Shown: in pieces, positions 3,758 to 63,238 of the stretch
Position numbering within the stretch: the first letter of the stretch is position 1
How the letters are laid out: every line of letters begins with the position of its first letter
Source: a virus
Lineage: Duplodnaviria; Caudoviricetes
Strand: one strand, 5' to 3'
IMG/VR virus record: IMGVR_UViG_3300015610_000633
Coordinates: 9,700-73,699 of that record
Length of the DNA stretch: 64,000 bases
Position numbers and translations under genes: made by a program
The notes under the pieces: model-generated
Told to the model about the DNA's origin: nothing
The model's database searches: none
The model's input: the letters and a program-made list of their open reading frames with translations, nothing else

Positions 3758-5029
3758 TCAAAACGGGAAGTCATCACCATCGGCAAGCGTGGTGTTAGGT
3801 TCATCATTGCGCACTGTAGGCAACTGCGCTTGATGTGATTGTGCCTTCATTTCACTGCGCTTGCGTATCGGTTGCGGTGGTGGGGGTGGTGGTGGCGCGG
3901 CTTGCTCGTATACATACCCGCAATGCGGGCACACAGCAGCGGTTTCTGGCATCGCTTGCCCGCATGAGTCACACGCTACCAGTTCAACCGATTGCGCTTG
4001 TTGTGGTGGCTTCTGCGCCGGTTTGGCTGGCACGTCTACCCGGTTAGACGTTTGTTGTTCACCACCGAACTCGTCAACGGCTTTCTTGTTGAAGGTAGGT
4101 TTTTCAGCCTTGACCTTGAAGATACGATCAAGATCAAACATCGCTTGCACTTGCTTCGGCATGTACGCTTCAACGTATGAACGAAGGTGAGCGACATTAT
4201 ACGGCGTTACCTCGTCACGATCGTCAGGTGGTTCAGAAAAGATCAACTCTTTGATATCGTCACGCAATGGAACCACACCCGAGCCAATGGGGATCGCGTC
4301 GTATTTTTCCATTGGCATCTTGTCTTTGTAATACTTCCAACGAAACGCATAAGGCGTGACTAGTGGGTTAGCCAATGCAGCGCCGAAGCTTTCACGGGCG
4401 TGATGAATGGCCCCCTTGACCTTATCACCGAGAAGTGATGTTTCGACCGCCAGTTGAACACCATCAGCCGGTTTAGCGTCGTTCACCACTGCGAACACGT
4501 AGAACAGTTTTGCGTTGCTGCTTTCTTGCCATGCTCGCGACATCAACAACCCGTGTGCACTTGCAGCGGTTTGAATGAAGTCAGGGATCTTGTTGCCTTG
4601 TAGAAGCCCACAAATGCCCGCTGCTGTTAGATTAGTTGTTGTGCCCGCGCCGTCGGTGACTGACCACACAGTAGTCATCGGGTGCAAACGTCGACTCATT
4701 ACAGCCTGATAGATCTCTTCAAGCAATACACCGAAAGGGTCGTTCGGTGGTACTTCGCGCTGACCCGCTTGATTGCGTGCATACATTGATTTATGCACGG
4801 TTTCGGGATCATGAGTCACAAAGTATTTCGTCCAAACTTCAGTCTTTTCAACTTTGGTTTTGTCGGTGTACGTAAACGGGATCGGGAGCTTGTAACGATA
4901 GATCGGTTTCGGTGGGTATTTAGTATGCAGCCAAACAGTGATTGAGCCATCTTTCGTCCACCCACGAAGCACCTTAGAGTGTTTCGCTTTACCCGTGTCA
5001 TGATTCAAGAAGTCATTGATGTCGGACAT
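3758..5029 (-). CDS. Putative single-stranded DNA-binding protein with zinc ribbon
   Basis: Probable start MSDINDF at 5029; CDSC..CPHC ribbon; acidic tail ending DGDDFPF as in SSBs; lies in the recombination module. Confidence 0.6.
   Translation of the reverse strand: MSDINDFLNHDTGKAKHSKVLRGWTKDGSITVWLHTKYPPKPIYRYKLPIPFTYTDKTKVEKTEVWTKYFVTHDPETVHKSMYARNQAGQREVPPNDPFGVLLEEIYQAVMSRRLHPMTTVWSVTDGAGTTTNLTAAGICGLLQGNKIPDFIQTAASAHGLLMSRAWQESSNAKLFYVFAVVNDAKPADGVQLAVETSLLGDKVKGAIHHARESFGAALANPLVTPYAFRWKYYKDKMPMEKYDAIPIGSGVVPLRDDIKELIFSEPPDDRDEVTPYNVAHLRSYVEAYMPKQVQAMFDLDRIFKVKAEKPTFNKKAVDEFGGEQQTSNRVDVPAKPAQKPPQQAQSVELVACDSCGQAMPETAAVCPHCGYVYEQAAPPPPPPPQPIRKRSEMKAQSHQAQLPTVRNDEPNTTLADGDDFPF
4032..4051. 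repeat. 20-bp quasi-palindrome, copy 1 (in-frame within CDS)
   Basis: ACGTCTACCCGGTTAGACGT. Confidence 0.95.
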
Positions 5030-5089
5030 TTTCGGAACCTTTGAACGTTGGTTGTTGATGCGAACTGTTTTTGAGTTCGCGACAATCAA

Positions 5090-5099
5090 ATAATGCAGC
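5090..5099 (-). promoter_or_regulatory. GCTGCATTAT motif upstream of the SSB-like gene
   Basis: Intergenic copy of the recurring motif. Confidence 0.55.
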
Positions 5100-5124
5100 C
5101 ATATCAAACCCCCCGCTACTTTTT

Positions 5125-5904
5125 TTATCTCACTAGGTCAGACAACTTCCGGGTACTTTGGCACCGACTAATCCAAAGCTGCACAAGGTGTTCTAGATGC
5201 TTCACGGTTTGGTCGTACTTCCGAAGCCTGGCCTGTTGTTCCTGCCACTCATCAGGGTACATTTCAGCGGCCTTGTAGCGTACGTCGGCATCGGTGATCT
5301 GCTTCGTTCTCAACCCGTCTTTTTTCTCTTTCTCAAGAACTTCCTGCGCTGACTTCCACATCGCGCCTATGATCGGATCATGTTGCGCTTCATAGCGCTC
5401 TTTCATGAGCTTTGCGGTCACATACAGCCGATGTGCTTCGCGCGCATTATCTTCAGCTTCATCAATGTTTTTTTGCAACGTGCCACGATCGGCGCGACCC
5501 TCGCCGACCTTCAACTCACGCTTCAAGCGTTCGTATACGCGATCGATGTCACAATCAAAAATCGTGGTCACTATGCGATCAAGTGGTGCCATATCCAACG
5601 CCGCGTTCATTGACTTGTTTGACGGCAAACTATGTGCACCAAACACCGCGTGAACCGGGTTGTCTGAAGTCTTAGCCTTCGGTTCTTCATGTGGTGTTGC
5701 TGGCACCTTATCGGGCGATTTGACGGGTGCAGTAACGGGCATCGGTAGAGTCTCAACACCACCACCACATTGTTCACACAACACACCACTAGGCGTACTA
5801 AACACCGGCCCGAAACATCGCTCACATACTTGCCCTTCAATCAATACGGGCGGAGGTGGTTGTTGTGGTTCAGGTGTTCGAACAACTTCACTTCGTTTTC
5901 GCAT
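5125..5904 (-). CDS. Hypothetical protein with N-terminal Zn finger and helical C-terminus (UvsY-like mediator by inference)
   Basis: CERC/CEQC motifs, Pro-rich linker, coiled C-terminal half; position among RecA, SSB and PolB. Confidence 0.5.
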   Translation of the reverse strand: MRKRSEVVRTPEPQQPPPPVLIEGQVCERCFGPVFSTPSGVLCEQCGGGVETLPMPVTAPVKSPDKVPATPHEEPKAKTSDNPVHAVFGAHSLPSNKSMNAALDMAPLDRIVTTIFDCDIDRVYERLKRELKVGEGRADRGTLQKNIDEAEDNAREAHRLYVTAKLMKERYEAQHDPIIGAMWKSAQEVLEKEKKDGLRTKQITDADVRYKAAEMYPDEWQEQQARLRKYDQTVKHLEHLVQLWISRCQSTRKLSDLVR

Positions 5905-8503
5905 GGTTCACTCCGTTCAATATTTCGTCAATCGTTAGCTTCAATGCAGGTGTAACGGCTACCGTGATCGGTAGATCCATCACAACCAACGCGCTCTTCA
6001 ACTTGCATTCGAGTACAACCGGCCTTGAACCGGGATGACTCTTCAACGCCTCACGTATTCTACCCATCACTTTGGTGTGATGTTCTTCAAGCTGCAATAC
6101 GAATGGTTTATTCTTTGAGCTTTGCGGTGGTGCCAATAGGACACCCGAAAGATCTATTGTCGCAGGTCTATTACACGATGTGATTTCGGGAAACATCGAC
6201 ACCTGACCTTGTTGCTCCAATGACACCCGTTTTGATTCACCCCTGGTTTTTTTCGGCCTGACCTTTTTATATTTATCAAGATCTACTTCGTGATTAGGGA
6301 ATATCGCCGCTAGTAGCCTATAGGTCGGCGGATATACTAGCGACTCCCATAGGTAGAACCGATCGCATTCACCCACCCAATCATCAGCGGGTATTACTTT
6401 CATGGGTGATGTTGACGCATCGGTAACAATGTATTGCACTTTGGTACCTTTGCCGATTTGCTCACCGCGTTCGAGCAATAGTTTTGCAATACGAATATGT
6501 GGCAATGATTCACTTGGATATTCATTCAATGGTTTTGATATTCCCTTTGACACCTTCACTTCATCAACGGGCAACTGTTCATTCAATACCCGATATGCGC
6601 AACGCTCAACCAACTTCAAATACATAGTCAGGTCATCACACTTACCGCAGAACAGTTTGATTACATCTTCTTGAAGTCTACGTGCCATCAATAGGGTATC
6701 ACCGCGCTTATACTCAAGCCCTTTCACTTCGGGTTTTGAATCAATGGTTGCGGCCTTGCCCTTATAATGTAGGTATGTGCCAACATATCGCTTTGCGGCT
6801 GTAAACACTAGCCAATCAAACTGTTTTTCATATGCCAGTTTCACATGGTTTCGAGTACACCCGCACTCTTTCAATATTCGTGGATAAAATGTTTCATTGC
6901 ACCATCGTGTGAAATCCTCGAACTCGCCCTTGGTGCACCCTGTCAAAAATACTGAGTCAGTGTCACCATATACCGCGCGCCACCCACGTTTCACTGCTTC
7001 TTCGATTGTCTTCTTGATCAACCATTGCCCGTTCTGTGTTACCGATTCGGCTATTTGACGATCGTAATATCGGCTAAACGTTGACCCTACCACACCATAA
7101 AAACTATTTGCCGCTACCTTATAGGCTGTAGATCTTCGGTCCGCGTCATACCATTCGGGTGTACCAGGCGCGGCATTAGATTTTCGTTCATTCCATTCTT
7201 TGCGAAGTCTAATCAGTTCACTTAGAGCCGTTGGCAATATTGCCCCTTCGATATTATCAAACCTCACACCTGTACTCGGTGACTTGCAGTATGATTGCCC
7301 GTTCAATACTTCTTTGGTTTCAGGGCTCATATTCCACGTCAAAATAATAGACGGGTACAGGCTAGCGAAGTCGCACACATGCACATTTTTGAGAATGCCC
7401 GCCTTCACATCGGGATGCATGACATATGCGCCAGCATATGGATCGTCATCTTCTTTTTTATTATCATCATCAAATAGCTTAGTCGGAAAGTGAAGGCCAC
7501 GCTGTGCACCTAGTTTCAACATATAACCATCGAGTTGTTTAGTAGGATTCAAAAACCAAGTATCGCAAAACCCGTGACACACTTCGCATAGTGTCTGAAA
7601 TAGTTTGATGTAGCCTGTTTTTCGTTCAAGGCGTGCCAACAATAGAGTGTCTTTTTTATTATACCGCAACAATCGAGCGCGCTCTTCACCGCCCTTTGAC
7701 CATGCCTCAAATGTCTTCTTTGAATCAAACTCGTCTTTAGCTTCACCGAGTATTGCTTGTGCAATATCATTCAACTTGAACGATTGTTTTTCTTCACCGC
7801 TCTCGCTAGCGGTATTCATACGCCTGAACAATACAAGTTGATCAAGGTACAACCATCGCCTGAACTTCACTTGAAGCCCTACAATGTTCGCGCGTTCCTG
7901 CAACATAGGGAAGTCAAAGCTTTGCGCATTCCAACCCACTAGTTGATCATATTTTTCGGCGGCCTTCCAAAATGCATCAAGTAGCTTTTTTTCAGCTTCA
8001 TCATTGTCATATTCAAGCATGCCAGTTTCTACCACCGATTCATCTTCATTGATCAAGGTCCAACACAATATTCGACATTCGATTTTTCGATCGAATGAAA
8101 AGCGTGCATCGGTTTCAATGTCTACATACCCGCGTGAAGGGGTTGCAATAGGTACTTCATGTTCACTCATATATCGTCTAAGTGCACTAACATCACCTTC
8201 AAATGTAGGGATACCCCTTTGCATAAATGGCCCCCCACCCTGCACCGCTGCTTTTCGATCGTTATTAGTACGCCAATCAATGCGTGTAAATCTACCTTGA
8301 TCGATTATTCTTCGAATAGGCATACCCGGCCCACATGCCCGAAATAGTGCCGATCGTGTACCGGGGTCAACGCGTTCGGTTTCGACAAATGCAGTATATG
8401 GTGCTTCTACCGATCGCTTGCGCAACGAACCATCTTCTGAACGGTAGAGAAAAACCAACAACCCATTGTCGTAATCTTCGAACGCGTTGACAAACCCGGT
8501 CAT
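5888..8503 (-). CDS. polB: Family B DNA polymerase with 3'-5' exonuclease
   Basis: DIET, GWNAQSFDFP, YAGAYV, DFASLYPSII, YKVAANSFYG, YGDTDSVF, KRY and KGLEYKRGD motifs. Confidence 0.97.
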   Translation of the reverse strand: MTGFVNAFEDYDNGLLVFLYRSEDGSLRKRSVEAPYTAFVETERVDPGTRSALFRACGPGMPIRRIIDQGRFTRIDWRTNNDRKAAVQGGGPFMQRGIPTFEGDVSALRRYMSEHEVPIATPSRGYVDIETDARFSFDRKIECRILCWTLINEDESVVETGMLEYDNDEAEKKLLDAFWKAAEKYDQLVGWNAQSFDFPMLQERANIVGLQVKFRRWLYLDQLVLFRRMNTASESGEEKQSFKLNDIAQAILGEAKDEFDSKKTFEAWSKGGEERARLLRYNKKDTLLLARLERKTGYIKLFQTLCEVCHGFCDTWFLNPTKQLDGYMLKLGAQRGLHFPTKLFDDDNKKEDDDPYAGAYVMHPDVKAGILKNVHVCDFASLYPSIILTWNMSPETKEVLNGQSYCKSPSTGVRFDNIEGAILPTALSELIRLRKEWNERKSNAAPGTPEWYDADRRSTAYKVAANSFYGVVGSTFSRYYDRQIAESVTQNGQWLIKKTIEEAVKRGWRAVYGDTDSVFLTGCTKGEFEDFTRWCNETFYPRILKECGCTRNHVKLAYEKQFDWLVFTAAKRYVGTYLHYKGKAATIDSKPEVKGLEYKRGDTLLMARRLQEDVIKLFCGKCDDLTMYLKLVERCAYRVLNEQLPVDEVKVSKGISKPLNEYPSESLPHIRIAKLLLERGEQIGKGTKVQYIVTDASTSPMKVIPADDWVGECDRFYLWESLVYPPTYRLLAAIFPNHEVDLDKYKKVRPKKTRGESKRVSLEQQGQVSMFPEITSCNRPATIDLSGVLLAPPQSSKNKPFVLQLEEHHTKVMGRIREALKSHPGSRPVVLECKLKSALVVMDLPITVAVTPALKLTIDEILNGVNHAKTK

Positions 8504-9660
8504 GACACACCTAACTTTTCAATACGTCGGGTTGAGATTTGAAGCGTCAAGTGACCACCCGCGTTAGGCTTTAGCTTGAAAAACATTTCAACATTGTTTT
8601 CAAGCTCCAATCGGCCCCATGGTTCATCAGCAAGCTTCTTCGCTTCTTTGGGTGTGTCACCTTTCTTTGCAGGTGTAGCGAATAGCTTCACGGTCTTATT
8701 GCCAGTGATAGACGCGATCGTGATTACGTCTTTCTTTGATGTGCCAGTTGTAGCGGGTGCACCTTTGCCCGCTGCGCCGCTCTTCGCGGTAGCCTTTGAA
8801 ACATCTTTCTTTCGGCCTTCTTTGACCGGTGCCGCTTTGCCTTCTTTCTTGTTCTTCTCTTTGGTGGCGTCTACCTGTTTTTGAAGTTGACGCTTAGAAG
8901 CAGTTTCGGCGATCGCGAGAAGTTGCGCTTGATCCTCGGGTGGTACCTGCAACAGCAACCCAAGCTTCGAAGGTCCAAACTTCATCACCTGTTCTTCATT
9001 GAATGCCCTCGCGATATCCATCAGGTTGTAGGCATGTGCAGGGCTAATCTTCAGTTCGTTTTCACAGAACGCGTTGAAGCTGCTGTACAGTGATTTACCT
9101 TCGGCGTCTGTTCGTAGTTTCCACAACGCCTTCGTGTGGTTCTCTGCGATCAACTTGCCGATAGTCCAATGCGACTTTGCAGCGTTACCTTTCGCTTCTT
9201 GTATGGCTGCGACCGATTGATCAAGATCTGCGATGGTACCTTGGGGGATGATTTCGGCGTCGTGAATGGCCCCCCCTTTCTTCGGTTTGCTCATTGTGGC
9301 CGGTGATACCTTCGCGAGTGCTGTCGTCGTTTCTGGTGTAACTGGCGCCTTCTTCTTGCCCTTCGGTTTAGCTTCGGGCTTGTCTTGTTTGGGTTCGGGT
9401 GTTTTCACGGTTACGCCTTCGGGTGGTTGATCGGACATTCCACAATAAGGGCACTCATCGAATGAGATACTTGAAACGCCTTCGCAACCATCGCACTTCA
9501 CAAGTTCATCGGAAGGCTTAGTAGCGAAATAATCACTAAGGTTTTTGATGTTTTGCGCCAAGTCAGCGGTCACTTCAATACCGACCTTTTCAAGCGCTTG
9601 ATTGATTAGTTCGGGCTTCACCTTGCTTAGTTGAACACCTGCTACCGTTTTGCTTGCCAT
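8500..9660 (-). CDS. Putative DNA-binding protein (Zn ribbon, HTH-like centre, Lys-rich region)
   Basis: CDGC..CPYC; HWTIGKLI...YSSFNAFCENELKISPAHAYNLMDIAR segment; Lys/Ala-rich tail; in-frame TTA at 8512 near the end. Confidence 0.6.
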   Translation of the reverse strand: MASKTVAGVQLSKVKPELINQALEKVGIEVTADLAQNIKNLSDYFATKPSDELVKCDGCEGVSSISFDECPYCGMSDQPPEGVTVKTPEPKQDKPEAKPKGKKKAPVTPETTTALAKVSPATMSKPKKGGAIHDAEIIPQGTIADLDQSVAAIQEAKGNAAKSHWTIGKLIAENHTKALWKLRTDAEGKSLYSSFNAFCENELKISPAHAYNLMDIARAFNEEQVMKFGPSKLGLLLQVPPEDQAQLLAIAETASKRQLQKQVDATKEKNKKEGKAAPVKEGRKKDVSKATAKSGAAGKGAPATTGTSKKDVITIASITGNKTVKLFATPAKKGDTPKEAKKLADEPWGRLELENNVEMFFKLKPNAGGHLTLQISTRRIEKLGVS

Positions 9661-9681
9661 TGGTTTTTGCTCCTGACTCCG

Positions 9682-9691
9682 ATTATGCAGC
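9682..9691 (-). promoter_or_regulatory. GCTGCATAAT motif upstream of 8500..9660
   Basis: Overlaps the sigma gene stop codon. Confidence 0.55.
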
Positions 9692-10317: not shown

Positions 10318-10337
10318 ACGTCTAACCGGGTAGACGT
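10318..10337. repeat. Quasi-palindrome, copy 2 (upstream of sigma gene)
   Basis: ACGTCTAACCGGGTAGACGT. Confidence 0.95.
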
Positions 10338-12757: not shown

Positions 12758-12800
12758 GTTATGCAGTCAAAACGACTTACCGTCAAGATCTTTTTTTGAG
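12758..12800 (-). promoter_or_regulatory. Sigma70-like promoter with A-tract
   Basis: AAAAAAAGATC-TTGACG(12786-12781)-17 nt-CATAAC(12763-12758). Confidence 0.75.
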
Positions 12801-12817
12801 GCTATGTCGTTTTTTTT

Positions 12818-13177
12818 TCAACCGCTGGTTTTCACGTCTACCCGGTTAGACGTATCACCGAAACGGCGGTGATACTCTTCGACCGAAAGAAACCCGTGTT
12901 GTTTCACCGGGTGATCTTTACGGTGCACTTCGGCGTAACGTTGTCTGCACTTGGCTAGGTTCTTCAGTGTATGCGGGTGAGTTCCGAACTCGAAACAACC
13001 GATCCCGAACTTCTTACGCTCTTTGAACCACTTGTTGCGACATACCCCCAACGCTTTAGCCTGCTGTCTACCGTTCGGATATTTCTCGATGAACTCGTTC
13101 ATCGCTTGCTTGTCTTGCAACAACTTCGCTAGCAACTCGCATTCATCAAGCGGCGTATGTTTTCGCTTAGTAGCCAT
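12818..13177 (-). CDS. Hypothetical small basic protein, possible HTH regulator
   Basis: GRQQAKALGVCRNKWFKERKKFGI resembles a helix-turn-helix; C-terminus encoded through a palindrome copy. Confidence 0.55.
   Translation of the reverse strand: MATKRKHTPLDECELLAKLLQDKQAMNEFIEKYPNGRQQAKALGVCRNKWFKERKKFGIGCFEFGTHPHTLKNLAKCRQRYAEVHRKDHPVKQHGFLSVEEYHRRFGDTSNRVDVKTSG
12834..12853. repeat. Quasi-palindrome, copy 3
   Basis: ACGTCTACCCGGTTAGACGT. Confidence 0.95.
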
Positions 13178-15822: not shown

Positions 15823-16048
15823 TTGCGATCCCTTTCAACTCACCACACACAACAACCCAGTATTCAACGAACTCACCGACATCAACGAAAGCTACTCGAA
15901 GCTTTGAAGGCCATTGCTTCACACACCAACACCACCACACAAACTGAACCCATCGCCACACCTGCCACCATTGCGCATCACATACCCTCACTAGTTGGTT
16001 GTAATGACCCGAACCAATGATCGCACCGTGAAGGGTAGGACGGTTCAC
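15797..16048 (-). CDS. Hypothetical Trp/Val-rich small protein
   Basis: Fills the gap between genes with a GTGA-type overlap; no motif recognised. Confidence 0.4.
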   Translation of the reverse strand: MNRPTLHGAIIGSGHYNQLVRVCDAQWWQVWRWVQFVWWCWCVKQWPSKLRVAFVDVGEFVEYWVVVCGELKGIASENAVYKH

Positions 16049-16461
16049 AACTTTTCAGCCTCACGCACAATACTCAACTTGTAATCAGTAACGGCCCTTC
16101 GGCTGAACACTGAACGCCAGTCAGCACGAAAGGTACTTGGTGAACCTGTATCCCTTCGGTACTTCTCACGCGACTTTTCACGCGACCAAAACCACCGTAT
16201 GAACACGATAAACTTGCTCATATCTTCGGCGAACTCTTCGCGTAGTATGCGCTTCGCTTGAACCCTTGCGATCGTGAAGTCTTTACCCGACTCTTCGGGA
16301 GTCGAAACACCATAAACGCGCTCATGACAAATGCAGTGAAGGATCATCACATGGTCAGGCGTTGCGGGTTGCCAGTTATCCGCCCGAAGCATGTCATTCA
16401 CTTCACTCTTCAAACGTTCAACTTTGGTTTGTGGTTTGGGTGGGTTTAGTGGGTGTCTCAT
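16045..16461 (-). CDS. Hypothetical protein upstream of DnaB (possible loader/initiator)
   Basis: Probable start MRHPLN at 16461; the longer ORF start runs through a palindrome. Confidence 0.6.
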   Translation of the reverse strand: MRHPLNPPKPQTKVERLKSEVNDMLRADNWQPATPDHVMILHCICHERVYGVSTPEESGKDFTIARVQAKRILREEFAEDMSKFIVFIRWFWSREKSREKYRRDTGSPSTFRADWRSVFSRRAVTDYKLSIVREAEKL

Positions 16462-16476
16462 GCCTTGTCTCTTGTC

Positions 16477-16496
16477 ACGTCTAACCGGGTAGACGT
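16477..16496. repeat. Quasi-palindrome, copy 4
   Basis: ACGTCTAACCGGGTAGACGT. Confidence 0.95.
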
Positions 16497-16501
16497 GAAC
16501 C

Positions 16502-16511
16502 ATTATGCAGC
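16502..16511 (-). promoter_or_regulatory. GCTGCATAAT motif followed by palindrome copy 4
   Basis: GCTGCATAATGGTTCACGTCTACCCGG. Confidence 0.6.
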
Positions 16512-16512
16512 G

Positions 16513-17958
16513 TCAAAGAGTGTCAAAAAAAGTAGGCTTGCGAGGTATGCGGTATTCATCGGGGTTCATAAGTCTACCATCAACCAACACCTTCACACGA
16601 TCACCGTACTTGTCGACAATACCTTTCAACACATACCGACCATATACGTGTTGATCCCAAAGATAATAAATCGTTGCGTGTGTCTTACCCGGTGACCCCC
16701 TGCATATTCTACCCCGCACTTGATTGAATAGTCGAAGGTTAGTACCAATAGGATCGGCAACAATCGCAACTTCAACCGTTGGTATATCGATCCCCGTTCC
16801 TATTGATTCAACAGTGCCAACCCCGATTTCAATAGAACCATCGGTTAGCCCATCAATAGCCCTTTCACGTTCTACCTTGTTCTTGGCTTGCCCAATGGTC
16901 AACCCCGTACGATACCCCCTCATTATCAACGAACGTTCAACCGATTTACAATGTTCAATACGTGAGAAGAACAACAACACTTGTTTACCCTTCACTGATT
17001 CAATCAATGAATAAACAACTTCATTGCGTTCATGATCGGTTACCATGGCAAGCGTTCGATTATATGATTCTTTCGCATCACAGGTGAACGCAGTAGGAAC
17101 CACAACCACGTTCACGGGTACAGTGCGCCCCGTTTGATCAACCGCTTCTTGTGATATCTCATAGCTAACCGATCCGAACTGGTCATAAATCAAACATTCA
17201 AGTTCATCGGGTCGGGTTTCATCGGCTGATAGCCCTATGCGATACTTTGCAGGAAACTTACTAACAACTTCGCGAAACGAACGAGCGGCAAACCGTTGAA
17301 CCTCGTCACATATCAACACACCATACTTGGCAACCATCCATTCGGGCACACCACTACGCGCAAGCGTTTGATCCATCGCGATCAATATGTCGGCTTCTTC
17401 TTTCTTACCACCACCATAAATACCAACTTGATCTTCATCCAAACCAAGTTCAGCGCGAAGGCGCCCCTTCCATTGGTCTTTCAAGCCATCAGTCCAAACC
17501 AATACGAGCGAAGGTCGCTTGATGCGGCTTATCATGGCGATCGCTGCTGTCGTCTTACCTGACCCCGTAGGAGCACGAACAAGACAGTTCTGCGAACGCA
17601 TAGCCAACTGAACCGCTTCTTCTTGGAACCAATCCAACGATCTACCGGTATCGGGTATCCATTCTCGAAGCTCACCTTCAACCCTTCGATCGTCTATTTC
17701 AAAATCATTCACACCATGAGATCTGAGTATATTGCGAACCTTGCGAAACCCACCACGCGGCAAAGTCATAAAATCACCGTCATAACCATAGGTTGATATT
17801 GTAGCCGGTTCTTTTTGCGCGGCGTAGAACTTCTTCAAACGTATCAACTGCGTATGGTTTTGGTTCTTATAGGTAAACGCATATTCGATCTCACCGCGCG
17901 CCACTAGGGGTATGGCATTCACGGCGATCCTGACTTGACTGTCTAGAACTATTCGCAT
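16513..17958 (-). CDS. SF2 DEAD/DEAH-like helicase (UvsW/Rad25-like)
   Basis: APTGSGKT, DEVQ, GLSAD, TGIDIP, QVRGRICR; start MRIVLDS at 17958. Confidence 0.9.
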   Translation of the reverse strand: MRIVLDSQVRIAVNAIPLVARGEIEYAFTYKNQNHTQLIRLKKFYAAQKEPATISTYGYDGDFMTLPRGGFRKVRNILRSHGVNDFEIDDRRVEGELREWIPDTGRSLDWFQEEAVQLAMRSQNCLVRAPTGSGKTTAAIAMISRIKRPSLVLVWTDGLKDQWKGRLRAELGLDEDQVGIYGGGKKEEADILIAMDQTLARSGVPEWMVAKYGVLICDEVQRFAARSFREVVSKFPAKYRIGLSADETRPDELECLIYDQFGSVSYEISQEAVDQTGRTVPVNVVVVPTAFTCDAKESYNRTLAMVTDHERNEVVYSLIESVKGKQVLLFFSRIEHCKSVERSLIMRGYRTGLTIGQAKNKVERERAIDGLTDGSIEIGVGTVESIGTGIDIPTVEVAIVADPIGTNLRLFNQVRGRICRGSPGKTHATIYYLWDQHVYGRYVLKGIVDKYGDRVKVLVDGRLMNPDEYRIPRKPTFFDTL

Positions 17959-17974: not shown

Positions 17975-20900
17975 GCTATCCCGTTGCAATAGCTCGAACA
18001 ACATCTTGCCAATATTATCGAAGCCAATGTTCAATACATCTTCACTCGAAGCACCCGCGGCTTCAAGGGCTGACTCACCACTAAGCCCGTCAGTCTGCAA
18101 ACTGACCGCTACCTTAGCCATGAGCAACGATTGAAGCTGTTCTTGCAATGACCCGGTGTATATGGGTATTAGCATTCGAGTAGGTTGGGTTTGTCCTATT
18201 CGATCAATACGACCGTTAGCTTGTCGCATTATTTCGGGGTTGCATGCTGGATTCTCAAACCAAATAGCCGTACTAAACGAAACCAGGTTGTTGATGCCTG
18301 TCTTGACCCCAACCGGGTTCAACACCAACACACGCTTACCCGGCTTCAATACGTTCGTTTCAATCCAGCTTTCACGCTCATGCGGCGGCACCTTACGCGA
18401 CTCAAGCAATGCAACGGGTTCACCAATATTTTCTTCAATGACCCGCTTCAATCTTGGCAATAGTTCAACATGATACCCGTACACAATGACTTTGCGACCT
18501 TCACATAGTTCGGCTTTCACCCTTTCAATCAACCATTGCTCTTTGGGCAACAACGATCGATTCATCGGTGGTTCACTTGCGACAATATCACCGCCCATAT
18601 TTTCGGGATATCTAATCACGTATTCACCACCCGTTGTATTGCCGGCATCGGGAACACATCGATCCAAGAATGAAGGTAGTTCTGACATTTGACCCCATAG
18701 CTTGCCGTTGCGTTCGGTAAACATGTCAGAAGATATTTGAGCCTTCAACGCCGTCAACAATCTTTCATATGCTTCACGTTGCTCGGGTAGCATTGCAACA
18801 CGAATGGTTTCTTGTGTGCTAGGCGGTAGGTCAAGTTGAAGATCTTCTTTGTGCAATGTGACCGCGATCGGTAGAAGATGTTTGATTACTAGCAGCGGCA
18901 ATACTCCCGGTGCGACCCCCACCTTTCGCGCGCTAGTAACTACCCGATCGGATTGAATCCCATATTCTACCGATTTTTTCTTACCATCACCTAGTTCAAC
19001 CACCTGTTTTCGATAACCATATCGATCAACAAATCGTTCAACATCTTCGCGCTCGAACTCACTCCTGAACCGTTGCGACATGTACCAAAGGTTGGCAAAC
19101 AATGAATGAGCGTAACCGTTCATGATTGAACCTGTCATCAATAGAGTAGGCTTACCAAGTTGAACAAGTCGGTGTGCTGCTTTCTCTTGTGCACTACCAT
19201 CGGCCGAATATTCATGACCCTCGTCTAGAATCAAAAAATCAAAACAATGTTTTGCATGTTTCGCAATATAGGTACTAAGAGCAATACGCCTCGGTTTGGG
19301 TGTCGAATAATACAACGGTTCACCGCATTCTTTCACCCGCGTTAGTCCGCAAAAACTAACCAAGAACTTCAACACATCAAGCAATGCTTCACTTGAACGT
19401 TGACGCCTGTAAACAAAAATATTGTTATTCAATGTCAATGAACATTCGGGTTCAATACTCTTCAAATGTTCGGGAACAACCACACCCTTCAACTCACACG
19501 CCTTATTGCATAGGTCAACAATACTAAACACCCATTGTTTGGATTCATATTTATTCATTGCTTTCTCGATTCTATTGACCCGATTCAACACATCAACGAA
19601 ATCATCACACACGGCTGCTATTAGTTTCAATGTATTTACAATGAATAGTTCGCGAATATCATTGTTCACCTGTTGTATTGATTCAATCATTTGAACCATC
19701 AACCGTTCGAGTGCAGGCAAACCCCGAACATGATTTTCAATCATAGTTTTGTTTTCATCAACCGTATATTTATCAACGCTTGACCGCTTACGATATACCC
19801 CTTGAGGCAATAGCATTTTGATCGTTTCGTCGTTTGAATACGCCGCATTCAAACACCGAGCAAGCTTCACAACACTATCGGCCCACGGATGCGGGTCGCT
19901 ACCCACTTGCGACAACATGACAGTGTTTGAACACTTCTCACGCTTGCGTGCATAATCTTTGCGCTCAATCGGCAAACCACATGATGGGCATATATTCGAA
20001 ACCGAACCCTTTTCATGATCTAGTTTTGCCGCCTCTCTCGACAATATACCGAGTGCAAAACCATTCATTGAACTGAACTCTTCAATGTCCTGTATTGATT
20101 GCAATACTTTGGTGTTATTACGACCAAACACCTCTGTGTATTGATTCTGCCATGATTGCAACAAGTGGGGCGGACACATGACAATCACTCGTTCAGCCTT
20201 CAACATCTTAGCAACAACCAATGATACGGTTGACTTACCACAACCGATCTCACCTAGTAGGATTGCACTGGTCGCTTTAGTCTCTTTGCTTTGATCTGAA
20301 AACAACTTTACCAATGCTCGAACAGTATGTGATTGCGCGGTGTACAATCGTCTTCGTGTTCTTGGCAGTATGTATTGACTCGCATCGGCAGGGGTATAGT
20401 TCACAGGGCATTGTTCGAGCATTACGCGCAACATGTCTCGACTGTAATAATACAATAGATCCGCCACTGTCATTTCACTTACCGATGACAGTTTTTCGTT
20501 CACAATCACACCTTGCGGTAGCTGTCGCAATACTTTGTTTTCAAGATCAAATACTGTCACGGTTAGCTTCGGTTGTTGTACCTGAACCAATGATGTGACA
20601 GTACCCGATTTGTCTGCATTCTCTTTGATTGTCCTGAACTCTTTGTCAAACACGCCCTTCACTAGCAATGGTGGCAACCCTTTTGTGTTCGGCATTATTC
20701 GTGCCCCATTGAAGACACCCGCTGCAACTGCAGTCGCTACATGCGCAGGCTTAGGGCTTGCCGCTAGTGGGTAAGATTGCTGCAACAATGAATCAATATT
20801 TTTTTGCGGGTATGTATTACGACCAGCGATCGCTGAACCTTTCTTACCTGTGAAATGAAAGGGTACATGTTGCAGCATAACATCGGCTTCATTTATTTTT

Positions 20901-21694: not shown

Positions 21695-21714
21695 ACGTCT
21701 AACCGGGTAGACGT
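21695..21714. repeat. Quasi-palindrome, copy 5
   Basis: ACGTCTAACCGGGTAGACGT. Confidence 0.95.
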
Positions 21715-23251: not shown

Positions 23252-23271
23252 ACGTCTACCCGGTTAGACGT
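23252..23271. repeat. Quasi-palindrome, copy 6 (putative origin region)
   Basis: ACGTCTACCCGGTTAGACGT. Confidence 0.95.
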
Positions 23272-23570
23272 CGGGGCGGGGGGTTGGGGGGTTGGGGCAC
23301 CCTGCTTCGGCGTTCCGCCGTTGTTGGCCATGGTTGATTCACGAAAACATCGGGGTTCGTTTTTCCCTTCTCCCCCTGCACCCCCTTATCCCTTTTCAAG
23401 ATTTCACTTCGTGAAATCTTAAGTTTTTGATCTCTTTGATCTTTTTTGATCTTCGGATCTATATGGATCTTAGATCTTATTATTAAGATCAAAAGACTAA
23501 CCGCGCGCATACATACACGCGTGCGCGTACACATACGCGAGAGAAACACAGCGACATATTTTTGAACTAC

Positions 23571-23580: not shown

Positions 23581-24261
23581 ATGAATATGTTCGCTCACGA
23601 GATCTCACCCGACTTCAACTCAAAACGGTTCACAATCAAAGACTACTTGACGGTTACGGCTGACAAAAAGCTAGGATATGCCCTAATCTTGGGCAGCAAA
23701 GATCCTAACACTGAGCTAGGCCGGTTTGAAAAGATAGCCGTTGATCAACGTCGCCCCCCTGCAATGGAGTTGCAGCCATGGCGAGACAAAAGCAATCGTT
23801 CACGGTGGTCAATACGAATGGCTCAATATAGGCAATATGCGCTTGAGAGCGGAACCGTGAAGGTTGGGTTGATAGCTCCTGATCTCAAGTGGGTAGACTC
23901 AGATAATGATCAACTTCTTGTGCGAATCAACACACACATGAAGGGCAACCCTTCGGAACTGGCAAGGGAAGGAACGATCGACATTCTAACCCCTTCACTT
24001 GCCATTAGAGTCGCCGATCCCGCATGGCATCAGTTCGGTGCCCATAAAGCACAAGATTGGCTTCTACGTCTCAAGCCAGGGGCCATAGTTTCTATTCATT
24101 GCGATCACGTCGGTATTAGACCTGTGTACGTGGTCTATATCGATGATGAACTAAAGTTGAACCCCCACATGTTGCCCGAACCATCACCACCCCCTTCACG
24201 CATTCATTGGTTAGATACTAACCCGATCAATGCCACATGCACCACCTTCGCAGGTTTCTAG
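23581..24261 (+). CDS. Hypothetical protein, only plus-strand gene (would end at TTA 24211-24213 if TTA is a stop)
   Basis: Long ORF with no opposing gene over most of its length; GCCGCATAAT motif immediately upstream. Confidence 0.7.
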   Translation: MNMFAHEISPDFNSKRFTIKDYLTVTADKKLGYALILGSKDPNTELGRFEKIAVDQRRPPAMELQPWRDKSNRSRWSIRMAQYRQYALESGTVKVGLIAPDLKWVDSDNDQLLVRINTHMKGNPSELAREGTIDILTPSLAIRVADPAWHQFGAHKAQDWLLRLKPGAIVSIHCDHVGIRPVYVVYIDDELKLNPHMLPEPSPPPSRIHWLDTNPINATCTTFAGF

Positions 24262-26209: not shown

Positions 26210-26229
26210 ACGTCTAACCGGGTAGACGT
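26210..26229. repeat. Quasi-palindrome, copy 7
   Basis: ACGTCTAACCGGGTAGACGT. Confidence 0.95.
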
Positions 26230-26234: not shown

Positions 26235-26969
26235 TTAGGGCATCAAAATATATGGTTCGGGGTTCGTAGTATCTTCAACACCTTCATTGAAATCATCGGG
26301 TACTATAGCGCTAGTTTCAAGGTCAACATCGGCAAGGGAAACATAACCCACAACGTGCTTGTTTCCTATCATGAGCCGGTTACCTTCCATGTGAACCGTT
26401 CTGTGTTTCCTAATACCTTGCGCTTGTCCCTTCGCGCTCACTTGCCCGTAATCATAGGAAGTCAGTTCCCCTTTATTGAAATCAATGTCTTCAAATATAG
26501 CAACATGTGGATCACAACACGTCATAAACGGATCACCAACATCAAACCACGAACCCCCTTCGTACACCGAGCGACTATCAAACACATGCCAAGACTTGTG
26601 TTGTTGTGGTCTAAGAATGTTCTGTTGTGGTTCCCATGGGTGCACCCCGCCATCCATGTTCCTATTGATTAGGTGTTCATCGCGAACACCGAGAAAAACC
26701 AGCACAGTGTGAACCAAGTCACCACACGAAAAATAAGGGAACTTCACCTTCCCTTGCGCATACAACTTGTTGTGTGAAGACTGCCTCCCCTCCGTTACGT
26801 ATTCAAAAATCGGATCACCCACAACCCAACCTTGATCACCATTGCAGAAATAGGAAGCGATCGCGATCGATGCCCTCCTAACCATTGCAAGATCTCTTTG
26901 TCCGTTTGAGTCTACAAGGTGAACGCGCTTCATTCTGACAAGGTTTGTCCCTTGTCTGTTTTCAGTCAA
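26235..26969 (-). CDS. Hypothetical protein (possible papain/CHAP-like cysteine hydrolase)
   Basis: SCGDLVH and HVAIF motifs loosely resemble a Cys-His catalytic pair. Confidence 0.5.
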   Translation of the reverse strand: MTENRQGTNLVRMKRVHLVDSNGQRDLAMVRRASIAIASYFCNGDQGWVVGDPIFEYVTEGRQSSHNKLYAQGKVKFPYFSCGDLVHTVLVFLGVRDEHLINRNMDGGVHPWEPQQNILRPQQHKSWHVFDSRSVYEGGSWFDVGDPFMTCCDPHVAIFEDIDFNKGELTSYDYGQVSAKGQAQGIRKHRTVHMEGNRLMIGNKHVVGYVSLADVDLETSAIVPDDFNEGVEDTTNPEPYILMP

Positions 26970-32177: not shown

Positions 32178-32197
32178 ACGTCTAACCGGGTAGACGT
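32178..32197. repeat. Quasi-palindrome, copy 8
   Basis: ACGTCTAACCGGGTAGACGT. Confidence 0.95.
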
Positions 32198-33839: not shown

Positions 33840-33859
33840 ACGTCTAACCGGGTAGACGT
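33840..33859. repeat. Quasi-palindrome, copy 9
   Basis: ACGTCTAACCGGGTAGACGT. Confidence 0.95.
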
Positions 33860-41343: not shown

Positions 41344-41363
41344 ACGTCTAACCGGGTAGACGT
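41344..41363. repeat. Quasi-palindrome, copy 10
   Basis: ACGTCTAACCGGGTAGACGT. Confidence 0.95.
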
Positions 41364-45447: not shown

Positions 45448-45467
45448 ACGTCTAACCGGGTAGACGT
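45448..45467. repeat. Quasi-palindrome, copy 11 (sheath-tube junction)
   Basis: ACGTCTAACCGGGTAGACGT. Confidence 0.95.
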
Positions 45468-50959: not shown

Positions 50960-50979
50960 ACGTCTAACCGGGTAAACGT
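50960..50979. repeat. Quasi-palindrome, copy 12 (one mismatch)
   Basis: ACGTCTAACCGGGTAAACGT. Confidence 0.9.
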
Positions 50980-51277: not shown

Positions 51278-51303
51278 AAAAAGAAAGGCCCCCGAAGGGC
51301 CTT
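51278..51303 (-). terminator. Rho-independent terminator after MCP
   Basis: AAGGCCC-TTCG-GGGGCCTT followed by TCTTTTTT. Confidence 0.85.
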
Positions 51304-53758: not shown

Positions 53759-53778
53759 ACGTCTAACCGGGTAGACGT
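53759..53778. repeat. Quasi-palindrome, copy 13 (upstream of scaffold gene)
   Basis: ACGTCTAACCGGGTAGACGT. Confidence 0.95.
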
Positions 53779-58517: not shown

Positions 58518-58549
58518 GCGTCGACACTAGCACGCATGGCACTAAGTCA

Positions 58550-59286: not shown

Positions 59287-59292
59287 TTGTTT

Positions 59293-59829: not shown

Positions 59830-60557
59830 TTTCGATCTCCGTTTCTGAGTGCTGTCATTTTTATCGTGTACACATTGCACAATGCTTGTGTGTACACGAT
59901 CGGTTCAACCGAACCGTTTGATCGCTTGAAGTTGCTGATTTCGATTCGCGCTTTTCTTATTGCACCGATCAACCTGTTTTGCAGGTTCGAAAGTGAATCG
60001 GGTGTCAACCTGTAATGTTTGATCAAGTTACACAACCCGATCGGATCTTCACGCTCGATTGTATCCCATAGTTTCGCGGTCGAACCGTACATACGCCGCA
60101 ACATATACACGAAGTCAATGCACCCATCGACCGACGAATCAAACGCGGGTCGCTTAGTCATTGCGTGAGGCGGTTCAAACCACGTTTGATACTTTAGGCC
60201 GTTCGTTGTTAGCTTCGCAGTACCCGGCCCGTTGTCTTGTGAAACTAGATCGCCCCCTTCTTTGGAACGAAACGAACGGATCTGCTCTTTCGTCAACCAT
60301 TGACAACTCACAACCGACGTCCACTTGAACCACACATTGGCATCAAGTGTTAGTTGCGAATAGTTGAAGTTGTAAAGCTCCGTTGTACCCCAACGCGTAG
60401 CCAACCCCCACAACGCAAGAAGCAACGCCGAAGGCGGTTGTGCTTTCTCCCCTAGTGCAGTCCACGCTAGGTCTAGTTCTTTCGATACTACCCCGATCGT
60501 TAGATCGGTAACGCGGTGTTGTGGCAAGTAATCGGGTGATGTTCGGTCTAGCAGCAT
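59826..60557 (-). CDS. Hypothetical protein, possibly a degenerate glucosaminidase/lysozyme-like fold
   Basis: LALWGLATRWG...YNFNYSQL loosely resembles the AQ..LE.GWG...NN.FG motif but lacks the catalytic Glu. Confidence 0.45.
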   Translation of the reverse strand: MLLDRTSPDYLPQHRVTDLTIGVVSKELDLAWTALGEKAQPPSALLLALWGLATRWGTTELYNFNYSQLTLDANVWFKWTSVVSCQWLTKEQIRSFRSKEGGDLVSQDNGPGTAKLTTNGLKYQTWFEPPHAMTKRPAFDSSVDGCIDFVYMLRRMYGSTAKLWDTIEREDPIGLCNLIKHYRLTPDSLSNLQNRLIGAIRKARIEISNFKRSNGSVEPIVYTQALCNVYTIKMTALRNGDRK

Positions 60558-61095
60558 GATCGCGCTCCTCTAGTGCGCTCATTATGCCGCTCATGTCGAA
60601 CAGTTCGACCCCGTGTTGATCACAATATTCGCGAACACGTGGATCGGGGTTGTACAAGTCAATGAAGTACACACCGCGAACACCGAAAGAAACCATCGTT
60701 TTCAAGCAATGCCAACAAGGGTATGTGTTCGTGAATACTGCCAACGGTTTCTTGTAGGCTTTACTCCAATCGATATTTGCAAGGGCGTTGATTTCAGCGT
60801 GAACCGTTCGAACGCAGTTTGAGCGTTGAACCGTCATACCATCAACCACCACTTGCGAGGTAACCAGATCACAACCCACTTCTTGGCACCCACACGCCCC
60901 GTGAAGCGATCGATTGCTACCCTCCCCCACCACATGCCACCCGCCGTCAATCTTGCACACTACGACCGCCCCTACTTGCTTGCGAGGGCATGACCCGGCT
61001 AGCGATACAGCACGCGCAGCCATCATCAGGTTCACAGCGCCAAAGAGTGTTTCACCCATAAACTTGACCATTGTTTCAATCTCTCCGGTTGTCAT
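60343..61095 (-). CDS. dCMP deaminase-like Zn-dependent deaminase (would end at TTA 60529-60531)
   Basis: SCPRKQVGAVVV, HAEINAL, PCWHC; start MTTGEIE at 61095. Confidence 0.92.
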   Translation of the reverse strand: MTTGEIETMVKFMGETLFGAVNLMMAARAVSLAGSCPRKQVGAVVVCKIDGGWHVVGEGSNRSLHGACGCQEVGCDLVTSQVVVDGMTVQRSNCVRTVHAEINALANIDWSKAYKKPLAVFTNTYPCWHCLKTMVSFGVRGVYFIDLYNPDPRVREYCDQHGVELFDMSGIMSALEERDHAARPNITRLLATTPRYRSNDRGSIERTRPSVDCTRGESTTAFGVASCVVGVGYALGYNGALQLQLFATNT

Positions 61096-61365
61096 GATCC
61101 ACCCATTTGCTCGTACACATGAACAACAACGGCCCAAGGTTCCGAGTAGTTAGACCATTGTTTGCGTACTTCGGCTTTAGCACGTTCCCATGTGCTTTCA
61201 TCTTTTCACCCACGAAGGCGGGTTATCATCACGCGGGTAACCTTTGGGATCTTTCATAACCCAAGCTTGTTGGGCAGGGGATAGATCCGTGGCTTTCTTG
61301 TCGAAGTAGTCGGGGGATGCGTTGAATGTTTCTTTCACCCAACTTGCGAGCTTTGAATCGGCCAT
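61092..61365 (-). pseudogene. Small protein gene interrupted by one extra base (frameshift)
   Basis: Frame 1 reads ...NPPSWVK(R stop). Removing one A of GTGAAAAGATGA gives DESTWERAKAEVRKQWSNYSEPWAVVVHVYEQMGGS* and a TGA overlapping the next ATG. Confidence 0.6.
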
Positions 61366-61392
61366 GTGTCGAGTATAGCCGAACACTAACTC

Positions 61393-61412
61393 ACGTCTAC
61401 CCGGTTAGACGT
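61393..61412. repeat. Quasi-palindrome, copy 14
   Basis: ACGTCTACCCGGTTAGACGT. Confidence 0.95.
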
Positions 61413-63001
61413 CAAACCGCTTGAACGCTTGAACCGGTGCCTTGCTTCTGCACCGTGTTACTAAACGGCGAGCCTGTAAGTTCAGCCCATGTCTTGCACG
61501 AAGCCGAAGCAGGTACAGCAAGTTCACCACCCGCTAGTGGTGGTACATGGCTTGTTGCGCCGTCAATGATGAAATCTTGTGTTGAACCTGCGATGTATTG
61601 CCCCGCGGCATCAATAACAAGCTTTGAACCCGTGTTGATTGCAAACACGCTCTCAACACCTGCACCCGAGAACACACCCGCGGAACAATCAACCATGTGC
61701 ATCTTGTTCGCAGTGTATAGCGAACCGGTGATCGCCTTGCCCCAAATGTTATTTGTAAGGGTTGTGTAACCGCCTGCAAACAACAGGTTACCCGTCGTAA
61801 CCATGCCGTCAATGTTCCAAGTTGCACCGATTGAATCAACGCCTTGCAACACTGAACTAACAATATCCACCTTCACAGGTGCGTACACGTTCAGTTGCTC
61901 AACGTAACAGTGTTGAAAAGAAGGGCTACCTTCAACAACTTCGGCTTCGGTGAAGTAACAACAAACGAAGCGCGCACCTTTGCCAATATGTAGCGCGCTC
62001 ACGAATGCAAAGTACTTGCACACAACTTGCCCTTCACCGTGCATGTGAAGCGTAACCCCCGCACTATCAGTCAACCCCTTTTCAAGTACCGATGTTGTAG
62101 CGGTTGGGGTAGCAACCGGGGTAACAGCAGCGGGATCAAACCACTCTTTGACGAACAGATCATTGGTTGCTTGTGAAGCCCCCCACGTCATCGTGTTAGC
62201 GTCTTTCGCAAACAACGAACCGACGAACGAACTCCAATCAATCGCTTTAGTGATCTTGAACATGGTGTTAGTTGCCGCAACACCATCAGCGATCGTTACT
62301 GCGCTCTTCGTGGATACAGTTCGCAATGAGCCAAGAATGTTCAACACGGCGCCAGCATACGGAGCATAAACCGAACCAACGATCTCTTCAGTCCACTCGT
62401 TAGAACCATCGGGATCGGGCACAAGATTGATCGTTGTACCATCTTTGAAGTGCCCGCCCGTTCGCGTTAGCCATTCTTTGAACGTGGCCAACGGTGAGCT
62501 AACCGAACCGGTGCCTTCATCATCACCGAGTGCTGAAATATACCAAGTGGTTTGATCCAACGCGACAAGAGAACAACCCGGTACGGTTTCAAACATACCC
62601 GTTGAATCGGTATCGGCAAAGCACACATAACCATCGACAGTTGCAGTGCTTGCGAGTACCCATGTGAAATATCGATCAAGGGTTTTCACATAACATAGTT
62701 GATAATCTTTCAACGTCTTCGCACCGGCTTTAGCTAGTGCGACCGTATCAAACACCACAACTTCGTTTTTCAACCCTGCAAGCTCATAACCTCGAAGTTC
62801 TGCAGAAGGTGCGTTACCTTGTGAAGCCCTCGCTTGCGCCACTTGAATCTCTTTCGGGATCGTTCCTGTGTATGATGAAAGTTCACAACCGTCATTGACC
62901 AGTTGTGTGATGTTGAAGTGATCGCTTGAGATTACTTTACCCGCTCGCCACGTTGAGCCAAGGTAAACGTAATCGCTTAGAAGCAGGTACTTGGTTGCCA
63001 T
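61412..63001 (-). CDS. Tailspike/fibre-like virion protein with beta-helix-type body
   Basis: N-terminal VFDTVALAK...YVKTLDRYFTW segment resembles tailspike N-terminal domains; GDDEGTGSVSSPLATF motif; repetitive beta strands. Confidence 0.6.
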   Translation of the reverse strand: MATKYLLLSDYVYLGSTWRAGKVISSDHFNITQLVNDGCELSSYTGTIPKEIQVAQARASQGNAPSAELRGYELAGLKNEVVVFDTVALAKAGAKTLKDYQLCYVKTLDRYFTWVLASTATVDGYVCFADTDSTGMFETVPGCSLVALDQTTWYISALGDDEGTGSVSSPLATFKEWLTRTGGHFKDGTTINLVPDPDGSNEWTEEIVGSVYAPYAGAVLNILGSLRTVSTKSAVTIADGVAATNTMFKITKAIDWSSFVGSLFAKDANTMTWGASQATNDLFVKEWFDPAAVTPVATPTATTSVLEKGLTDSAGVTLHMHGEGQVVCKYFAFVSALHIGKGARFVCCYFTEAEVVEGSPSFQHCYVEQLNVYAPVKVDIVSSVLQGVDSIGATWNIDGMVTTGNLLFAGGYTTLTNNIWGKAITGSLYTANKMHMVDCSAGVFSGAGVESVFAINTGSKLVIDAAGQYIAGSTQDFIIDGATSHVPPLAGGELAVPASASCKTWAELTGSPFSNTVQKQGTGSSVQAV

Positions 63002-63016
63002 TCGACAACGCTAGCA

Positions 63017-63190
63017 CTAGCGACGAACACAACCAAAAACACGCGTGTATAACCAGCCTTCGGCACCCATGCGTGAAGCGATGTCTTCGTAACGGTTTGT
63101 TCGCATTGGTTTAGCTTCGCAGAACAACACGCGTTCACGTTTAGCGATCAATCGTTTCAAGGTTTCGTAATAGTCGATTGTTGAAAACAT
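63017..63190 (-). CDS. Possible small ORF (57 aa; TTA at 63050-63052)
   Basis: MFSTIDYYETLKRLIAKRERV...; fills the intergenic gap; below the ORF track threshold. Confidence 0.35.
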   Translation of the reverse strand: MFSTIDYYETLKRLIAKRERVLFCEAKPMRTNRYEDIASRMGAEGWLYTRVFGCVRR

Positions 63191-63218
63191 CGGGGGATCT
63201 TGCTCAACCCCCCCCCCT

Positions 63219-63238
63219 ACGTCTACCCGGTTAGACGT
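63219..63238. repeat. Quasi-palindrome, copy 15
   Basis: ACGTCTACCCGGTTAGACGT. Confidence 0.95.

Follow-up and report, generated by a model that had tools for sequence, protein, structure and literature searches.

An evenly spaced array of 20-bp palindromes in an uncultivated tailed phage, one instance of a family-wide system of putative protein docking sites

What reads a short palindrome that recurs, almost letter for letter, from one part of a phage genome to another, and does it act as DNA or as RNA? The question is raised by a stretch of 64,000 nucleotides (the window) from a virus of the Caudoviricetes (Duplodnaviria), IMG/VR record IMGVR_UViG_3300015610_000633, of which it covers bases 9700-73699. 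The whole record, designated G000, is 73,699 bp long and carries nearly all of its genes on the minus strand. An earlier note on this DNA had listed 15 copies of a 20-bp quasi-palindrome, ACGTCTA-N6-TAGACGT. A search for this pattern with at most one mismatch returned exactly those copies, 14 exact and one with a single mismatch (at 50960, G to A on the plus strand), against a chance expectation, from shuffled sequences, of 0.01 on average. As the note had also counted, ten copies have the TAACCGGGTA form and five the TACCCGGTTA form on the plus strand of the window, and the central A.CCGG.G is identical in all of them. Three further exact copies (record positions g13, g2895 and g7061) bring the record to 18. 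In the sense of transcription, 11 of these read ACGTCTACCCGGTTAGACGT and 7 the reverse form, which is no departure from random (P=0.48).

The proposal of a genome-wide cis system for a sequence-specific protein appears to be supported, with a candidate for the binder. We give roughly an even chance to the reading in which the 20-bp element serves a phage homodimer, most likely the product of the gene at 8500-9660 and acting genome-wide, as a docking site on double-stranded DNA.

The array in this phage is one instance of a family-wide system. Eighty IMG/VR loci were fetched through relatives of the capsid protein, and repeated words were sought by k-mer counting there and then in 19 fully fetched genomes. 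Together with G000 these form a comparison set of 20 full genomes, the 19 relatives being uncultivated phages of 77-101 kb with 53-71% G+C and genes running in one direction. A genome-specific palindrome of 16-32 bp, in 8-34 copies, was found in 19 of the 20 genomes, and 312 of the 357 sites counted are exact; the count in the full genome and its relatives suggested by the earlier note was thereby obtained. Examples from relatives are CCGCAACACGTGTTGCGG, TGGAACTCGAGTTCCA, CCCAAACCCGGGTTTGGG and ACGGATGATCGATCATCCGT, and the palindrome words are alike between sister genomes. Nearly all families are two-fold symmetric through the centre, with the dyad on a CpG in 18 of 19 genomes. Half-sites aligned on the dyad share the loose consensus ACGGAAACCC, in which a C adjoins the dyad in 18 of 19 genomes. 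One genome, G006 (loci L112-L116), has no repeated palindrome, yet keeps every core gene; no gene was found that is common to all palindrome-bearing genomes and missing from G006.

The copies are placed with some regularity. Three copies lie in coding sequence, within low-complexity or C-terminal segments, two of them being the window copies 4032 and 12834, and the window copies 23252 and 63219 supply or overlap a stop codon. The remaining ones occupy very short gaps, with a stop codon before them (its last A often shared) and a start codon 10-26 nt after, so that the earlier estimate of twelve copies between genes or at gene boundaries was about right. Spacing had been described as irregular; this holds in detail, but the copies of G000 are significantly more even than chance, with a coefficient of variation (CV) of 0.46, where sites drawn at random, from all positions or from gene boundaries, give 0.92 (P ~0.001). 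The departure from random spacing towards evenness is significant (P below 0.05) in 16 of 19 genomes; the CV is 0.32-0.63 in 18 of the 19 and 0.74 in G017, where sites placed at random give about 0.92. The evenness also holds against randomly drawn gene boundaries (P=0.0013 in G000, P below 0.0001 in G001). For any one gene, a preceding site occurs in at most about half of the genomes. The copy at 10318 stands at the head of a gene run of sigma factor, 8500-9660 and DNA polymerase, and a site at this place, before the sigma/8500-9660 run, occurs here and in 7 of 19 genomes. Eight genomes (G003, G004, G007, G009, G014, G015, G019 and G020) have palindrome copies within the DNA polymerase gene itself, that of G007 in an internal variable loop and the seven others at non-homologous points of the variable C-terminal linker; these copies were placed independently. 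Because the spacing is even, the positions are partly conserved and the polymerase copies were placed independently, it looks as if selection has acted on the density and evenness of the array in addition to favouring particular junctions.

The asymmetric centre, which the earlier note took as an argument for sequence-specific protein recognition, probably has a different explanation. The two half-sites of G000, ACGTCTAACC and ACGTCTACCC, differ solely at the third base from the dyad, a position that is C or A across the family. The symmetric C form of the site would contain CCCGGG, and this hexamer, the most strongly avoided 6-bp palindrome of the genome, is found 0 times against 21.6 expected. 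CTCGAG, GGATCC, GGGCCC, CCTAGG, GAGCTC and AGGCCT are likewise absent, and two tetramers are scarce, with 6 copies of AATT where 189 would be expected and 3 of TTAA where 110 would be; such avoidance of short palindromes was probably left by restriction systems of the host and gives a clue to its identity. A parallel case is G004, in which 31.8 occurrences of CACGTG would be expected and 3 are found, and in which every one of the 31 sites is a CACGTA hybrid, while its sister G001 keeps CACGTG in its sites. The invariant asymmetry would thus be best explained by restriction-site avoidance and not by an asymmetric function, all the more as the sites of relatives are symmetric. One substitution per site, in either half, would be the cheapest escape from restriction, which is why every copy would be a hybrid. 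In this account a single C-to-A change, at the third base from the centre and in one half only, would be the scar left in each site.

The most probable reader of the sites is the 386-aa product of 8500-9660, whose family occurs in 19 of the 20 genomes and whose gene adjoins the sigma factor gene in the genomes examined. The AlphaFold2 model (predicted local distance difference test, pLDDT, 79) starts with a SAP-like domain and a zinc ribbon; a disordered linker then leads to a helical domain (~143-295), and a small beta domain forms the C-terminus. In an exhaustive structural comparison the model matched first the parS-bound DNA-binding domain of ParB (6s6h, Z 7.7, root-mean-square deviation 2.6 Å over 97 residues), followed by Spo0J (Z 6.7), KorB-operator (5.7), KorB (5.6), SopB (4.9) and VirB (4.1); the best Foldseek row, which is weak, was Spo0J-parS. 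Pfam recognised HTH_ParB in one of 18 family members and DUF3102 in another, and the protein atlas placed the family with DUF3102 and plasmid-partition clusters. A literature search for DUF3102 found no functional study. No ParB_N (CTPase) domain was found in 8500-9660, the N-terminus of the model being the SAP-like domain and zinc ribbon. The protein thus probably carries, to judge from the model, a DNA-binding helix-turn-helix (HTH) domain of ParB/KorB type. It was one of three binders named in the earlier note, and the one that stands, being conserved in the family; the other two, 12818-13177 and 23581-24261, had no homologues in the four genomes first compared and belong to no family of at least 10 genomes. 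A profile of another core family, 16045-16503, gave no match in the PDB.

Divergence of the half-sites was also compared with that of the proteins of 37 core families by a partial Mantel test that controlled for mean core divergence. The sigma factor came first (0.45, P=0.0002) and 8500-9660 second (0.34, P=0.003), in a test that is liberal and inflated by shared ancestry, with the two genes linked, so that the ranking alone was used. These limits count against the docking-site reading with 8500-9660 as the binder, and several other points weigh on the same side. The portal protein attains 0.25 in the same test, and within 8500-9660 the recognition helix does not stand out in the co-divergence signal. 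As to the fold, the match is moderate, with Z 7.7 for the helical domain and a Foldseek E value of 0.55. G006, free of palindromes, retains homologues of both 8500-9660 and the sigma factor. Conservation at orthologous positions, on which the earlier note had set store, is partial: about 40% of the mappable sites are common to the sisters G001 and G004, and the rest are not. Most sites have no recognisable promoter beside them, and these last two observations together imply that gene-specific regulation is not the whole story. The sites of G004 show an orientation bias of 24:7 (P=0.003) that restriction avoidance alone does not account for, and a docking-site reading leaves the origin of new exact copies unexplained.

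It is possible, though we think it unlikely, that the elements are double-stranded DNA sites of another phage protein, either ParB_N proteins, which lead here and for which the palindromes would be parS-like loading sites, or a fast-evolving small regulator. Three paralogous ParB_N proteins are encoded upstream of the window (g4714-5346, g5328-5846 and g7823-8521), their family profile matches Noc and Spo0J at E 1e-20, and the palindromes of several relatives have the centres of parS or of Noc-binding sites (NBS), CACGTG and CCCGGG. The profile match, however, comes mainly through the N-terminal domain, and the region aligned to the Noc HTH is poorly matched and acidic. Moreover, the family is strong in the palindrome-free G006 and almost absent in G003, which has 24 palindromes, and it shows no co-divergence with the sites (partial r -0.20, in only 7 genomes). 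As a separate observation, the three proteins form part of a cassette (L087 4714-8521) with a cupin and a PAPS-reductase/DUF3440 protein; two of them have a ribbon-helix-helix-like tail, and the cassette also contains the palindrome g7061. In the first four relatives compared, no homologue of either the PAPS reductase or the cupin was found.

Still less probable, in our estimate, is an RNA element, that is, a 7-bp hairpin which would stabilise, process or terminate the long one-directional transcripts and be read by a sequence-specific RNA-binding protein or nuclease. Such a hairpin would be modestly stable in both orientations (computed folding -6.9 to -7.0 kcal/mol), and the sites stand between a stop codon and a ribosome-binding site. 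Two copies lie at the predicted 5' end of promoter-driven transcripts, the copy at 23252, alone among the 18, is followed by a T-run and resembles an intrinsic terminator, and in the sense strand of the one variant copy a G·U pair is retained. The loops, however, are self-complementary in nearly all families, and symmetry through the centre argues for double-stranded DNA, since an RNA loop needs no self-complementarity. The stems show no copy-specific extension into the flanks (mean 0.78 against 0.70 in the null control). Among variant copies in 19 genomes, transitions on the sense strand give 9 G·U against 15 A·C, with no G·U bias, and there are 32 transversion mismatches as well, mostly at outer positions, which break the pairing. 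In G008 the half-sites GGAAT and GGAAA occur in all combinations, four hybrids being unable to pair; the half-sites behave independently of one another. Sites occur in both orientations, and an Rfam scan of the window gave no match. A strong canonical intrinsic terminator (GGCCCTTCGGGGGCC, then a T-run) stands directly after the major head gene, at ~51279-51301 on the minus strand, so ordinary terminators are used alongside the palindromes. Taken together, the central symmetry, the want of flank extension and of G·U bias, the G008 hybrids and the separate terminators point to recognition as double-stranded DNA by a two-fold symmetric protein, and the mRNA-processing or hairpin option raised earlier is not upheld.

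We regard as improbable that the palindromes are small selfish or mobile elements, similar to repetitive extragenic palindromic (REP) sequences or miniature inverted-repeat transposable elements (MITE), that copy themselves into permissive spots and have no function for the phage. The copies are letter-identical, their positions turn over between sister genomes, they land in tolerant protein linkers, and point mutation cannot create new exact copies of 20 bp. On the other side, the even spacing implies selection on placement, no flanking target-site duplications were seen, and there was no transposase or RAYT among the proteins scanned. Two further arguments against it are the consensus shared at family level and the co-divergence of sites and DNA-binding genes. 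The exact motif was not found in a scan of IMG/VR or in 185,579 prokaryote species genomes, and a relaxed-pattern scan of metagenome contigs gave just five unrelated single matches, which is chance level; the REP-like option of the earlier note is not supported by these same searches.

The sigma factor that ranked first in co-divergence remains to be placed. Its gene is conserved in all 20 genomes, Sigma70 region 2 is recognised in 13 of 19 family members, the best PDB profile match is FliA, and for the model (pLDDT 90) all top Foldseek rows are sigma factors. A strand-specific motif, which reads GCTGCATAATGG in this phage and GCGGCATAAGG in G001, G004, G005 and G019, stands 5-25 nt before start codons. 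This GCATAA-type motif looks, from its sequence, like a -10-only promoter and recalls the -10 element of sigma28, and the sigma factor more probably reads such promoters than the palindromes. In G000 the palindromes at 16477 and 21695 lie immediately downstream of the motif, at about the +1 of predicted GCTGCATAAT promoters, the latter 18 nt upstream of the ATG of a 1251-aa helicase gene. In relatives some palindromes stand immediately upstream of the motif. Two sigma70-like sites (TTGACG-N17-CATAAC) each have a palindrome ~45-75 nt upstream; one of them lies ~45 nt downstream, in the sense direction, of the copy at 12834. The idea that the palindromes are themselves promoters, each half-site being a -35-type element for domain 4 of the phage sigma factor, draws on that first rank and on the many half-sites with GGAAC, GAAAC or GCAAC, which we take to resemble the -35 elements of extracytoplasmic function (ECF) sigma factors, but it is very improbable, as there is no conserved -10 element at a fixed distance downstream of the copies, a monomeric sigma factor needs no two-fold symmetry, all genes run one way, and a protein with a profile closest to FliA is better fitted by the separate strand-specific GCATAA motif.

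A repeated module was also noticed. In it a palindrome is followed, after a spacer of ~45-75 nt, by a sigma70-like promoter, AAAAAAGATCTTGACGGTA.GTC-N-GCATAAC; the module occurs in the window at ~12759-12853 and across the record ends (g13-32 with g73650-73699). The copy across both ends suggests that the assembly is circularly permuted or end-joined.

Returning to the docking-site reading, each half of a dimer would read one 10-bp half-site, and a grid of sites about 4 kb apart would let the 8500-9660 product act along the whole genome. That this product binds the sites, and what its binding does, we infer from the evidence above. Its most probable role would be to regulate transcription globally, much as KorB does on RK2, with operators at or beside promoters and with roadblocks or anchors elsewhere; alternatively, the grid may serve DNA organisation. 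Site sequence and protein would change together from lineage to lineage. More tentatively, and with rather less confidence than in the docking site itself, one may picture a large uncultivated phage family in which an even grid is read by a clamp-less KorB-like HTH protein that acts jointly with the adjacent sigma factor, in a code rewritten in each lineage and sculpted by restriction. If true, this would be a self-contained, re-programmable system for genome-wide transcription or DNA organisation in a lytic phage. The family would offer a data set for learning how specificity changes in ParB/KorB-type HTH domains, and, if the protein-site pairs are orthogonal, possible independent operator-repressor parts. 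The odd base pair, being tied to a missing restriction site, would indicate that host defence can shape a regulatory site.

Table 1. Palindrome copies of the window and the two genes considered with them
Feature	Position	Strand	Remarks
Candidate binder, 386 aa	8500..9660	-	Core gene; SAP-like domain and zinc ribbon, linker, HTH domain, beta domain
Phage sigma factor, 208 aa	9683..10309	-	Region 2 and sigma4-like domain; core gene
Palindrome copy	4032..4051		Inside gene 3758-5107, low-complexity linker; minus-strand sense ACGTCTAACCGGGTAGACGT, giving TSNRVDV
Palindrome copy	10318..10337		17 nt upstream of ATG of sigma-factor gene
Palindrome copy	12834..12853		Near 3' end of open reading frame (ORF) 12818-13177
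Palindrome copy	16477..16496		Directly downstream of promoter-like GCTGCATAATGG (GCATAA 16503-16508); 15 nt upstream of ATG
Palindrome copy	21695..21714		Directly downstream of promoter-like GCTGCATAATGG (GCATAA 21721-21726)
Palindrome copy	23252..23271		Internal TAG terminates ORF 23256-23549
Palindrome copy	26210..26229		Between gene 26235-26969 and ribonucleotide reductase gene
Palindrome copy	32178..32197		First base is last A of upstream stop; 12 nt upstream of ATG
Palindrome copy	33840..33859		Adjoins upstream stop codon; 26 nt upstream of ATG
Palindrome copy	41344..41363		10 nt upstream of ATG, tail-module gene
Palindrome copy	45448..45467		Upstream stop 4 nt before; ATG 14 nt after
Palindrome copy, sole variant	50960..50979		Sense ACGTTTACCC...; adjoins upstream stop; 19 nt upstream of ATG
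Palindrome copy	53759..53778		Head module; 20 nt upstream of ATG
Palindrome copy	61393..61412		Adjoins stop of gene 61412-63001
Palindrome copy	63219..63238		Internal TAG terminates DUF6011 gene 63223-63990

As to the phage itself, PHROGs and Pfam scans recognised genes for replication (family B DNA polymerase, DnaB-like and UvrD-like helicases, primase), for further enzymes (a RecA-like protein, SbcCD-like proteins, a PDDEXK nuclease, ribonucleotide reductase and dCMP deaminase) and for structure (portal, major head protein and tail genes). The Pfam or PHROGs scans, which covered about 55 proteins, revealed no classical repressor, integrase, transposase or RNA polymerase. When 20 kb were compared with phage isolates by megablast, nothing matched, and the best match of the helicase among isolates was only ~33% identical. 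The capsid protein found only seven records of isolates (from Streptomyces, Komagataeibacter and Ralstonia), with 30% identity at best; its metagenomic relatives number hundreds, the closest at 83% and 73% identity.

Two observations from relatives may be added. In G006 the C-terminal domain of the 8500-9660 homologue departs from the family consensus (NGV to PGL). In G004 two tRNA-like stretches (L100 ~17030-17150 and 19280-19400, at G004 77090 and 79339) have a GGTTCGATTCC T-arm and acceptor-like ends, with the genome's palindrome standing at the expected position of the anticodon arm; ARAGORN called no tRNA on either stretch.

Several known systems invite comparison, and the array is not a set of stoperators, REP elements or RNA processing signals. 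The stoperators of Cluster A mycobacteriophages and the conserved inverted repeat (CIR) operators of Streptomyces phage phiC31 are present in tens of intergenic copies that bind one phage repressor, and the present array resembles them in the many copies of one short site in intergenic regions genome-wide. Stoperators are asymmetric and oriented with transcription, and both kinds of phage are temperate with an immunity repressor. The sites described here, in contrast, have no orientation tied to transcription (11:7, as given above), those of relatives are perfectly symmetric, and no integrase or CI-like repressor was seen among the proteins scanned, so that the stoperator analogy of the earlier note does not carry over. 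ParB-parS and Noc-NBS systems use CpG-centred palindromes of 14-16 bp, the Noc sites being scattered round the chromosome, and several relatives have the CACGTG centre of parS or the CCCGGG centre of NBS in their sites. The arms of the phage sites, however, are inverted relative to those of parS and NBS, their density is far higher, and the candidate 8500-9660 has no CTPase domain; for this last reason the system lies outside the ParB-CTPase systems.

Two published systems would come closest, the operators read by KorB on RK2 (PMC11790492) and, in Cluster O mycobacteriophages, a set of 17-bp repeats (PMC4351075). On the IncP-1 plasmid RK2, the O_B palindromes occur all round the replicon, at promoters and also well away from any, and are read by KorB, a dimer with a ParB-type HTH domain that acts as a global regulator (PMC11790492). 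The phage sites are similarly scattered over their replicon; they differ in being 16-32 bp long, different in every lineage and carried by a lytic-looking phage. KorB dimerises through an SH3-like C-terminal domain, and the candidate binder likewise ends in a small beta domain. Unlike KorB, the candidate has the SAP-like domain and zinc ribbon in place of the N-terminal ParB CTPase domain, and no ParA or IncC partner was seen in the phage.

Cluster O mycobacteriophages, which are not obviously temperate, have more than 30 nearly invariant 17-bp dyad repeats, many of them intergenic and about one third in genes; their authors predicted binding by a dimeric protein, the function being unknown (PMC4351075). 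They share with the present array the dispersed, near-invariant and dyad-symmetric copies throughout a phage genome. They differ in a 3-bp non-symmetric spacer, in sequence and architecture and in belonging to an unrelated phage family, and no candidate binder or lineage-to-lineage reprogramming was described for them (PMC4351075). Earlier dispersed dyad repeats, known from few phages and notably from Cluster O, thus came without a binder or a function, whereas the present family gives about twenty natural 'alleles' of a site and its candidate protein, and makes the question directly testable.

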